Below are positions 32,372-35,807 of a stretch of 64,000 nucleotides of DNA, piece after piece. Within the stretch, counting starts at the first letter, position 1. Each line of letters begins with the position of its first letter. Source of the stretch: Bacteroidota bacterium (GTDB lineage Bacteria; Bacteroidota; Ignavibacteria; UBA10030; UBA8401); assembly GCA_040751955.1 (NCBI GenBank), contig JBFMFY010000007.1:23949-87948 (forward strand). Direction: 5' to 3'. The translations under genes and the position numbers were made by a program. The notes beneath the pieces were generated by a model that saw only the letters and a list, made by a program, of their open reading frames with translations, was not told the origin of the DNA and made no database searches.

Positions 32372-33571
32372 TTACAGTATGTTCCGGTATGATTCAGTGA
32401 TTTCGGATCTCATCATATCGAAGAGCGGTGAATGCAGAGATCGTTTCATAGAAGAAATCAATAGTGTCGCTTCCACATACGCCGCCGTGTACGTCGTGCC
32501 GCGGTACTCGGGATAAAACGGATTAACGGTGATTGCAGCGAGAAGGATAGGTTTACGATACGAGATGATGATGTTGAGTCCGGTCAGTTGTGCAATGTGT
32601 TGTGCGGTGCGCTGCGGCTCGCCGGAAAGAAGGAGGGAGATGGGATCGGTGAAGATAATTTCATGCGGGCGGTCTGCTTCTTGCAGGAGACGAATTCTTT
32701 CGGTAAGTGTTTGCAAACCAATCGATGTAATCAATCCATTGATAATAAGTGGATTCCCGCTTTCGCTGGAACGACAATCCTCTTTATAATGTAATATTAA
32801 CTTTTCGACTTCCGTTGCGTCAATAATGGTTGAGGAGGAGCTCCCGGCAGGTAAAGCGAGATTCTTCGCTTCGCTCGGAATGACATTGATTGAGAAGTTG
32901 TTTTGTTTATTATTCCACTGCGTCTTACCGAATTGAAATAAGAATTCAATCGCTTTCATTTCCTCAACAAGAGCGGCAATGTCGGTTGTCCGTGCTGCGC
33001 CGGTGGTGAAGATGATCTTGTCGACAACAGACATCGGTGCAATACGATTGAGCGAACCATCAACAAAAATATCTTTGCAACCTAAATCTGTCATCTGTCG
33101 CACAACCTTTTCGAGTTCGCTCCGTTTGTTCGGTCCCGCAAGCACAATCAAGCCGGGTGTCTCACATCGCACAATGACGATCTCGCCGAGCGCAGTGTAC
33201 AATCCGGTTTTCTGAATGATGCTCCAGCCTCTCGCCGGCACGCATTGCAACGATGTTGAAGCGATCATTCCATGATGAAGAAAGATGCGCGGCTTCGGAA
33301 GTGATGTGATGTTGTCGATCTCTTCGCCGTCATAGCCGATACTGGTAACGCCGGTTGTCATTCGGAACGAAGTCCCGAAGGGACGAGTGAGGAATCTGGA
33401 CTGAATATGCGGCGGAGAAGCAGATTTCTCGCCTCCTTCGTCGGCTCGAAATGACACCGATGAAGTATTGTCTGCATCCAGAACTCCAAACTGAGATTTG
33501 TGAAGCAGCGCGTTGAGCGTGGTGGTCTTGCCGGTGTTCTTTGCCGTCCCTGCGATGCCGATGATGGACAT
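32372..33571 (-). CDS. P-loop NTPase with a deviant Walker A motif (SIMIBI-class, KxxxGKTT). It may be a B12-enzyme accessory/chaperone. The coding sequence carries two repeat-derived segments.
   Basis: The N-terminus is 'MSIIGIAGTAKNTGKTTTLNAL'. The region 33356-33456 is a palindromic repeat element read in-frame ('VSFRADEGGEKSASPPHIQSRFLTRPFGTSFRMT'). A degenerate repeat remnant lies at 32751-32780 ('RSSESGNPL'). Confidence 0.5.
   Translation of the reverse strand: MSIIGIAGTAKNTGKTTTLNALLHKSQFGVLDADNTSSVSFRADEGGEKSASPPHIQSRFLTRPFGTSFRMTTGVTSIGYDGEEIDNITSLPKPRIFLHHGMIASTSLQCVPARGWSIIQKTGLYTALGEIVIVRCETPGLIVLAGPNKRSELEKVVRQMTDLGCKDIFVDGSLNRIAPMSVVDKIIFTTGAARTTDIAALVEEMKAIEFLFQFGKTQWNNKQNNFSINVIPSEAKNLALPAGSSSSTIIDATEVEKLILHYKEDCRSSESGNPLIINGLITSIGLQTLTERIRLLQEADRPHEIIFTDPISLLLSGEPQRTAQHIAQLTGLNIIISYRKPILLAAITVNPFYPEYRGTTYTAAYVEATLLISSMKRSLHSPLFDMMRSEITESYRNIL
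33356..33456. repeat. Nested-palindrome element embedded in-frame inside the P-loop NTPase coding sequence.
   Basis: The sequence is TGTCATTCGGAACGAAG-tcccgaagggac-...-gagaagcagatttctcgcctccttcgtcggCTCGAAATGACA. Its terminal inverted repeats match the intergenic copies. Confidence 0.6.
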
Positions 33572-33589
33572 AAAAACGAAAATGTGATT

Positions 33590-33695
33590 TGAGGAATTTC
33601 TTTACTGGATTCTTCACTTCATCCCGATCTAAATCATCGGGACTCGTTCAGAATGACACGGTATATTCAGATTTCTCGCTTTGCTCGAAATGACA
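33590..33695. repeat. Repeat element between the P-loop and aminomutase genes.
   Basis: The hairpin tcccgatctaaatcatcggga, 'ctcgttcagaatgacacgg' and 'gatttctcgctttgctcgaaatgaca' are present. The last is the reverse complement of the 35842 module. Confidence 0.6.
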
Positions 33696-33726
33696 AAGGG
33701 AAATGAATATTTCAGAAGTCACATAT

Positions 33727-35526
33727 TTATTGAATGACTGTTCCTTTGCCGAACGTTCCCGGATACGCGCCGTCCTCTTTGCTGCCGAGTGCGCCGGCGT
33801 TGATTGCTTCGGGGAGATTTGCATATGCGGCAACTGTTTCAAGAGTCGATTGGATCTTTCGAACGAAATCATCTGTGAAATTGTCCGCTGCGGCTGTCGG
33901 TTGGAATGATGCATCTCCCATGAACCGGAATGCATCGGTCACGGCGCGGATGGAATCGATGCGCGATGCAATCGTGATGGGTCCGCGTGAGAACGCTTCG
34001 TCAGTTGACGCTATTGTAATTGCATCTACTCCGGCACATGCAGCGAGCGCGGCGTGGTACGATGTGGCATTTGCCGATTGCACGCGTTCTTCCGTCTGCG
34101 TCATGAACGCGATCGGTTCGCCGGGCCAGATCGGTGCATCAACGATCGAACGGAGCGCGCGGATCTTTGCAGCGTTGTAATCGACATAATTCTGTTTCAT
34201 CTGTCCATGCAGAACAATATCCGGTCCGTAGCAGAAGAGAGGTTTCAGGATCGCTTTTGCCCCGAGTTTTTTTCCGAGCATCACGTTGATCAATAATCCC
34301 GCAAGTGATTTTGCAGCAGGCACGCCGCTCAGTTCATCGTTTCCCGGAATGTCGAACGCCATGATATGCTCGGCTGCGATCTTCATCGCAAACAGACCAT
34401 CCACAGTCAATCGCTCAGGATCTGTACCTGCGCCGAGCGATCCGTACACAAGATTGATCTTTGTCATATCGGCGCCCGCTTGTGCGGCGAGATAGATCGT
34501 CTCCGGCGTGTTCAATCCACGGTGTGCGCGGACAGTAAGTAATGTCGAAGGGTCCAGAGATTCCCTCATCAACCGTACATTTTCTTCAGAGGTGATCGTT
34601 CCGTCGTTCTCATGCGTCAGGAGTCCGTGGAGCAATCCTTCGTACCGCGCCTCCCACGACGGATTGATGATGAGGAATCCGTCAACGCCGTACCGCTCGC
34701 AGATCTTTGCGTGAACGATATCCATCGTCGGACATCCGCTGCCGAGGAATTTGAAAATGAGCGGCTGGCGTGCGTTGTGCCGGATATTCTGTTGATGCAG
34801 CGATTGTTTCTGGCGGAGGAGCAGCCGGATATTTTCGACTTCGTTGTCCGTGATGTAGCGGACCCCTTTCGGGAATATTTTTTTGGAATTCGCATCGGCG
34901 ATAACCGGATCGCACAGTGCGTCGTACCGATCCATTAATGATCTTCTGCGGGACGAGTCCGTAACTACGGAGAGTTCCTGACGTATCTTGCATCGTTCTA
35001 TTCCGGCGGACGATTTACCTTCTGCCCAGCGCAACGTTTTTTCCGCAATTGTATCGAGCAGATCGCCGATTCGTCTGTGCCGGAAGGAATAGAAATAGTG
35101 GCACGTGATATCCGGTTTTGTCCGCTCATGGTTGCCGGCGGCGCTGTGCAACGGACGATCTTCAATGTATGCAATCACTTCGTCGATCGATGAGTGTTCG
35201 CCGAATCCTTTGTCGAAGCCGAGTTCCGCGGCAAGTTCCGGTGTGATCGGTTTTCCTCCCAATACTATTTTTGTCGATTCGCGAACGCCTGCAGCATCAA
35301 GCAGGTCGTTGAATCGTGCAAGCAGCTCTGCCACACCGTACCCCAGCGTGCGGCTGACAAGGATGTAATCATACTGTGTTGCCGATGCTTTTTTCACGAT
35401 CTCTTCCATCGAAAGGTCGGGGGGGAGGAGTTCGGTGCAATGTCCGCGCTCTGCAAGAGAATTTTTTATTAGTTTGATGCCGACATCGTGGACCGGATCG
35501 AACGGGACGCAGAGGATCTTTTTCAT
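33727..35526 (-). CDS. Fused cobalamin-binding domain and aminomutase catalytic TIM-barrel protein (lysine 5,6-aminomutase alpha / D-ornithine 4,5-aminomutase E-like).
   Basis: The start is taken at 'MKKILCVPFDPVHDVGIKL'. This N-terminal B12-binding domain carries the DxHxxG motif 'DPVHDVG' and aligns with glutamate mutase S ('VLGVIGSDCHAVGNKIL'). The C-terminal region 'ENVRLMRESLDP...' matches KamD 'ENFRLMREALD'. The Arg/Cys-rich 58-aa N-terminal extension in the ORF track is rejected. Confidence 0.6.
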   Translation of the reverse strand: MKKILCVPFDPVHDVGIKLIKNSLAERGHCTELLPPDLSMEEIVKKASATQYDYILVSRTLGYGVAELLARFNDLLDAAGVRESTKIVLGGKPITPELAAELGFDKGFGEHSSIDEVIAYIEDRPLHSAAGNHERTKPDITCHYFYSFRHRRIGDLLDTIAEKTLRWAEGKSSAGIERCKIRQELSVVTDSSRRRSLMDRYDALCDPVIADANSKKIFPKGVRYITDNEVENIRLLLRQKQSLHQQNIRHNARQPLIFKFLGSGCPTMDIVHAKICERYGVDGFLIINPSWEARYEGLLHGLLTHENDGTITSEENVRLMRESLDPSTLLTVRAHRGLNTPETIYLAAQAGADMTKINLVYGSLGAGTDPERLTVDGLFAMKIAAEHIMAFDIPGNDELSGVPAAKSLAGLLINVMLGKKLGAKAILKPLFCYGPDIVLHGQMKQNYVDYNAAKIRALRSIVDAPIWPGEPIAFMTQTEERVQSANATSYHAALAACAGVDAITIASTDEAFSRGPITIASRIDSIRAVTDAFRFMGDASFQPTAAADNFTDDFVRKIQSTLETVAAYANLPEAINAGALGSKEDGAYPGTFGKGTVIQ

Positions 35527-35807
35527 TGCGGGTCGCTCTCCAGCCAGTGGTACTTTTGTGCAGGACGATGGATGTATTTGCGGATACGGACACGGACGCC
35601 GTACCCGTCGAATTCTTCGAACATGACATCGACATCTCCGAGATTCATTTCTTTTCCGAGCTGCAGCGCAAGCGCATGTCCTTGATGTGCATTGGTACAC
35701 ATCAGGTATGCTTCAACATCGACCGCGTCGATAACTTTATTGAGGGCTGACATGTTTAACCTATTATAATTCCATGCAATCGGTTTTAAGAAAATTTCAA
35801 ATTTCAA
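35523..35807 (-). CDS. Small hypothetical protein, translationally coupled (ATGA overlap) to the aminomutase gene. It could be a small subunit or partner (OraS-like role).
   Basis: The 94-aa ORF has its stop overlapping the aminomutase ATG. The real start may be 'MSALNKVIDAV' at about 35753. No recognisable motif was found. Confidence 0.3.
   Translation of the reverse strand: MKFEIFLKPIAWNYNRLNMSALNKVIDAVDVEAYLMCTNAHQGHALALQLGKEMNLGDVDVMFEEFDGYGVRVRIRKYIHRPAQKYHWLESDPQ

Follow-up and report, generated by a model that had tools for sequence, protein, structure and literature searches.

We think it fairly probable that the locus described here encodes a three-protein, AdoCbl-dependent radical isomerase that belongs to the KamDE/OraSE lineage and has a rearranged architecture, carried in an operon for the catabolism of a diamino acid. 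The large subunit of this system, referred to below as the mutase, probably catalyses an amino-acid rearrangement that has not been described before. To our knowledge, very few amino-acid mutases that depend on B12 have been described, namely glutamate mutase, lysine 5,6-aminomutase and ornithine 4,5-aminomutase. The features of the locus are listed in Table 1 by their positions in the window, that is, the whole stretch of 64,000 nucleotides that was analysed.

Table 1. Positions of the mutase locus and its neighbours in the window
Feature	Position	Strand	Remarks
KamB-like reactivase subunit	32372..33571	-	NF052386; N-terminal GTAKNTGKTT P-loop; in-frame repeat-element insertion
Mutase large subunit, 599 aa	33727..35526	-	Rossmann B12 domain fused ahead of complete KamD-like region
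KamD-like TIM barrel and C-terminal region, residues 251-599	33730..34776	-	Remodelled active site
KamD-like N-terminal helical region, residues about 151-250	34777..35076	-	hhalign to KamD 10-150
Linker, residues about 126-150	35077..35151	-	Variable, low-confidence; joins Rossmann domain to KamD-like region
B12-binding Rossmann domain, residues 1-125	35152..35526	-	PF02310, NF052385; KamE/OraE type, without PLP-lysine insertion
DxHxxG motif (D10-P-V-H13-D-V-G16)	35479..35499	-	Predicts base-off/His-on cobalamin binding
ATGA overlap, small-subunit stop and mutase start	35523..35526	-	Read from sequence
Small subunit, 76 aa	35523..35753	-	Free-standing KamE N-terminal domain homologue (beta-alpha-beta-beta); fold and profile match
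Fold-type-I PLP enzyme (PLP488), 488 aa	36005..37471	-	TIGR01437; distantly SelA/DgaE-like; lysine motif SMDK
DUF6917 protein, about 144 aa	37585..38019	-	PF21891, E 9e-43; true start near M20 of the ORF
meso-Diaminopimelate D-dehydrogenase (DAPDH) family enzyme	38027..38962	-	TIGR01921, 297 bits (cutoff 181)
GntR/FCD transcriptional regulator	38970..39650	-	PF00392 and PF07729; operon head in 23/35 loci
Sodium:solute symporter	39822..41348	-	PF00474, E 1.5e-40; start codon uncertain

Distribution of the mutase family

Members of the family occur in Ignavibacteria, Sumerlaeota and Bacillota, cultured Bacillota strains included, and are abundant in anoxic sediments as well as in bioreactors and hot springs. 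A contig scan with a single protein query returned only three loci. Literature searches on DUF6917, and on aminomutases together with DAP dehydrogenase or diaminopimelate, returned nothing on the mutase family.

The large subunit

The open reading frame track gives the large gene as 35700..33727 on the minus strand (657 aa), and the supported gene is 35526..33727. All 120 best homologues are 586-611 aa long and begin at MKK(I/V)L...P(F/L)DPVHDVG, and the 599-aa start was accepted for that reason. The Arg/Cys-rich extension of 58 aa, which the original prediction had held to be untranslated, lies upstream of the start shared by the homologues, in agreement with that prediction, and corresponds to the small ORF translated in a different frame.

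The order of domains had been predicted to be permuted, with the B12-binding domain placed before a KamD-like barrel, and this was confirmed. The Pfam scan suggested with that prediction placed B12-binding (PF02310) at residues 11-112 (E 1.9e-11, above gathering) and Lys-AminoMut_A (PF09043) at residues 219-393 (30.5 bits against a cutoff of 25). In hhalign profile alignment, homology to KamD spans mutase residues 151-599 against KamD 10-498, and the motif ENVRLMRESLD, which had been singled out as KamD-like, does align with KamD ENFR(L/I)MR(E/K)ALD. In contrast, the Rossmann domain of KamE is C-terminal, at chain residues about 115-254, and that of OraE occupies residues 630-730. An AF2 model of the mutase (pLDDT 85) has helices at residues 151-239, and a Foldseek search with it returned KamD as the top match with E values of 1e-16 to 1e-17 (7.5e-17 for 8t0v_A), followed by GlmE and OraE. 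The linker is poorly conserved by column, with pLDDT values of 67-75 in the blocks around residues 129-131, where the value drops below 50. The barrel has more than 100 invariant columns and is 43-51% identical between phyla.

The N-terminal domain carries the DxHxxG motif and the downstream SxL/GG-type motifs of a Rossmann B12 domain, its VSRT and GG being placed as VSQT and GGPRI are in KamE. Among 29 diverse members, residues P11, V12, H13 and D14 never vary and D10 hardly does; one clade has Ala in place of G16. From this sequence pattern, cobalamin should be bound base-off/His-on through His13. The domain had been described as resembling the S component of glutamate mutase, a description that we have revised: MutS models gave E values of about 1e-3 and 18 bits against cutoffs of 110-136, and the match to NF052385 (E 7.5e-13) makes the domain KamE/OraE-like instead.

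The small subunit

The predicted coupling of a small ORF to the mutase gene is directly visible in the DNA, where the stop TGA at 35523-35525 and the start ATG at 35524-35526 overlap (caATGAaa). The length of 94 aa first given to this ORF had to be corrected to 76 aa, with the supported start at ATG 35753. The TTG start that would yield 94 aa was rejected, as the 18 additional upstream codons are unconserved in one related locus (L001) and interrupted by a stop in another (L002), and homologues are 66-89 aa long. The idea that the small ORF encodes a conserved stoichiometric partner was upheld, since 68 of 71 non-redundant loci have it upstream of the mutase at a distance of no more than 300 nt. 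A 4-nt ATGA or GTGA overlap was present in 17 of the 54 loci scored, and most others fell between -47 and +58 nt. No natural fusion of the small ORF to the mutase was found in 87 loci, and the Thermovenabulum mutase has neither an adjoining small ORF nor a KamB-like gene.

The suggestion that this ORF is OraS-like was not sustained. Pfam and NCBIfam scans gave no family match, the OraS chain was absent among the top 50-60 fold matches of the 76-aa model, and both the predicted fold and profile comparison point instead to the N-terminal domain of KamE. The fold also matches OraE, in which residues ~507-590 are the counterpart of the KamE N-terminal domain. As the small protein corresponds to the KamE N-domain, KamE appears to have been split, its N-domain being free and its Rossmann domain fused before KamD.

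The KamB-like protein and the operon

In 53 of 56 non-redundant loci the mutase is followed within 400 nt by a KamB-like gene, whose P-loop is conserved. The small ORF, the mutase and this gene keep together across Ignavibacteria, Sumerlaeota and Bacillota. The protein encoded in the window scores 180 bits against NF052386 (cutoff 210), and the orthologue from Tepidanaerobacter syntrophicus scores 242 bits. It is most likely a reactivase or a cofactor-exchange chaperone. A repeat search of 32800-33720 found no inverted repeat, and imperfect element ends are visible by eye. PDB sequence searches with the KamB-like and DUF6917 proteins gave only chance-level matches.

Further upstream, the operon holds two more uncharacterised proteins, DUF6917 and PLP488. 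PLP488 matches TIGR01437 at E 5e-9, far below the cutoff, and PDB 8t7j at E 1.5e-4; in 30 of 35 loci it is found upstream of the mutase at a distance of up to 8 kb. Its constant neighbour is the DUF6917 protein (29/35), whose homologues align from residue 19-20 and which is fused to RidA in one locus (L088). The DAPDH matches PDB 8i78_A and 3wb9_A at E 1e-110. It is present in 18 of the 35 loci and is almost mutually exclusive with an FAD oxidoreductase, one or the other being found in 29. The subgroup to which this DAPDH belongs is known for relaxed D-amino-acid specificity, which weakens a link to DAP. The sodium:solute symporter is confined to the closest relatives, and other clades have NhaC-type, EamA or unclassified membrane transporters.

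In some loci DapF, DapA and LysA are encoded at scores above their equivalog cutoffs (DapF in only 5/35, LysA in only four loci). The operon is without kamA, kdd, kce and kal. The mutase operon carries no riboswitch that a search of the window and of seven loci could find; the only riboswitches nearby are of the lysine type, before lysA, and of the cobalamin type, before a B12-type ABC transporter. One locus has a B12 riboswitch and a transporter at a distance of 3 kb. By association, this context suggests the catabolism of a diamino acid tied to DAP or lysine.

The PLP site

The distance from mutase His13 to LLPP is nine residues shorter than that from KamE His133 to NLGS, and the missing stretch holds the PLP-binding Lys144. 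The KamE insertion NMK144GYAGHYGLERY is thus absent from the mutase Rossmann domain in alignment, as is the insertion carrying Lys629, the counterpart in OraE. K18 and K21 were considered as substitutes and rejected, as Sumerlaeota have Arg in place of K18 and position 21 varies.

The PLP cradle of KamD is formed by R184, G187, Q188, S189, Y236, S238, Y263, R268 and N299 (PMC3958899). In the mutase R184 corresponds to N288, Y236 to A334, S238 to R336, R268 to A366 and N299 to E398, and G187, Q188 and S189 are non-conserved or deleted; the sole survivor of the nine contacts is the stacking tyrosine Y263, kept as the invariant Y361. This mapping comes from profile alignments at low identity (about 22%, with hhalign probabilities of 66-87%), two of which disagree around KamD 184-189; the contacts lost are put at seven or eight of nine. 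In a phmmer comparison with OraE, E81 maps to F260 and RTAGQS is paired with NPSWEA. The part of the phmmer comparison around GSLGAGTDPE was set aside as a local artefact, the KamD profile alignment keeping RxxVDxxF and equal spacing. A Gly-rich loop (362-368) stands at the place of the phosphate-binding Arg268 of KamD. K356, K406 and K454 are invariant across diverse members, as are R294, R333, R336 and R372, which lie in or beside barrel strands or loops.

All NCBIfam aminomutase equivalogs scored far below their cutoffs (NF052385, 48.7 against 280 bits; NF040743, 28.6 against 800; NF052384, 22.8 against 600). With these scores, and with the PLP lysine and most KamD-type contacts gone, the label of aminomutase given in the original prediction is not established. 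Given the lost PLP features, an amino shift, a carbon-skeleton shift and an elimination would all be candidate chemistries judging from the sequence. Between an amino-group shift with PLP held in a remodelled barrel site and a PLP-independent rearrangement, we lean slightly towards the former.

Alternative interpretations and known systems

The loss of the PLP lysine and of most PLP contacts would suit a PLP-independent carbon-skeleton mutase like glutamate mutase, acting on an amino-dicarboxylate such as diaminopimelate that is held by the four invariant arginines at the barrel. Glutamate mutase (GlmS/GlmE) likewise combines a B12 Rossmann domain with a TIM barrel, acts on an amino acid without a thioester and has no PLP-tethering lysine; GlmE is the second-best fold match (E 7e-11, TM 0.43), and bona fide DapF, DAPDH, DapA and LysA occur in the neighbourhoods. 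We nevertheless regard this reading as rather unlikely. The likeness to GlmE is in fold alone, with none detected in sequence, TIGR01501 scores 18.2 bits against 135.8, MutS models reach E values of only about 1e-3 and 1be1 gives E 0.58. The Rossmann domain, barrel, small subunit and reactivase are all nearer to the aminomutase system, and the partner proteins are of that type, no GlmL/MutL-type partner having been seen; moreover, the PLP-stacking tyrosine is invariant and the Gly-rich loop sits where KamD has Arg268. IcmF, which is among the fold matches, provides a precedent for an N-terminal cobalamin domain and a C-terminal barrel in one chain, but it has the MeaB G-protein between these domains, acts on acyl-CoA and has no close sequence relation to the mutase.

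It is improbable that the locus encodes an ordinary PLP/B12 D-ornithine 4,5- or D-lysine 5,6-aminomutase that departs from the known enzymes in domain order alone, as part of a variant ornithine or lysine fermentation operon. KamD and KamE are closest to it in sequence and fold, and compared with KamDE (PDB 1xrs, 8t0v, 9q1a) every part has a counterpart, including a KamD-type TIM barrel, a KamB-type reactivase and a Rossmann domain with DxHxxG that is about 30% identical to that of KamE; Tyr361 is also retained. However, in the known arrangements kamD and kamE are either two genes or fused as KamD-KamE (as in P0244), whereas here the Rossmann half of a split KamE is joined to the N-terminus of KamD. 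The Lys144 insertion is missing, with K18, an Arg in Sumerlaeota, the sole lysine nearby; only one of nine PLP contacts (Tyr263) is kept, and the wide failure of the equivalog models also argues against this reading.

The resemblance to OraSE (PDB 3kow to 3kp1) is of the same mixed kind. Both are two-subunit systems with a small and a large chain, the latter containing barrel and Rossmann domain, and the proposed logic of the pathway is alike, in that an oxidative deaminase and a PLP enzyme would act after the mutase. The order of the genes, with a dehydrogenase, a small protein, the PLP enzyme, the small subunit, the mutase and the reactivase in turn, seems to resemble ord-ortA-ortB-oraS-oraE, and weak gamma-lyase-like matches of PLP488 would suit a 2,4-diamino acid product. 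Yet the order in OraE is barrel, N-domain and Rossmann domain. In the present locus the N-domain is free and precedes a fusion of Rossmann domain and barrel, with the KamD-like N-terminal helices, the inferred equivalent of OraS, inside the large chain. By family scans and fold the small subunit is not OraS-like, Lys629 and the RTAGQS loop are not conserved, and the NF040743 score is below its cutoff. Glu81, which in OraE binds the alpha-amine of the substrate, is Phe260; of KamD, neither the RxxGQS phosphate loop nor Ser238, Arg268 or Asn299 is retained; and neither DUF6917 nor PLP488 matches the OrtA or OrtB models.

A non-radical corrinoid protein for methyl transfer, B12 sensing or storage, with a degenerate KamD-like barrel, might account for the weak similarity of the B12 domain to corrinoid proteins of methyltransferases such as MtgC, MtbC and 1y80, but it is very improbable given the high conservation of the barrel, the linkage to a KamB-type reactivase, and the absence of a B12-binding_2 cap domain from the Pfam scan and of a methyltransferase partner from the operons.

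Proposed mechanism and significance

For the radical isomerase of the KamDE/OraSE lineage that we favour, the small subunit would be made in step with the large one, often by way of the ATGA overlap, and would dock on the barrel, most likely in a structural or dimerisation role. A flexible linker of ~25 residues would join the Rossmann domain to the KamD-like region, and the Rossmann domain could swing over the barrel. Homolysis of the Co-C bond would then produce the 5'-deoxyadenosyl radical. The substrate, an amino acid kept in place by invariant Arg, His, Glu and Lys residues, would lose a hydrogen atom to this radical, and a 1,2-rearrangement of the substrate radical would be the next step. 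Judging from its context, the operon could serve the regulated catabolism of a D-amino acid or diamino acid with a link to diaminopimelate or lysine. The DAPDH-type enzyme, or in other lineages the FAD oxidoreductase, would remove one amino group, and a possible role for the SelA/DgaE-like PLP488, with DUF6917 and RidA, could be to remove the other.

A more specific proposal, which we put forward tentatively, is that the family is a third branch of B12 amino-acid mutases, acting on diaminopimelate or a related diamino acid derived from peptidoglycan or lysine and dispensing with the Rossmann-lysine lock. PLP may be bound by a barrel lysine, for example K356, or not used at all, and the mutase may form the basis of a new anaerobic pathway of catabolism that includes the DAPDH-type enzyme and a new PLP lyase module of PLP488, DUF6917 and RidA.

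In lysine 5,6- and ornithine 4,5-aminomutase, the substrate frees the PLP-lysine lock and the B12 domain then swings into place. The mutase family is homologous to these enzymes part for part, is without the lock and most of the PLP site, and connects its domains in another way, and it thus offers a natural experiment on the gating of radical generation. Solving the function of the mutase operon would probably expose a new route of amino-acid fermentation, possibly for the peptidoglycan component diaminopimelate, and an assigned function would replace the generic label of cobalamin B12-binding domain-containing protein on hundreds of genes.

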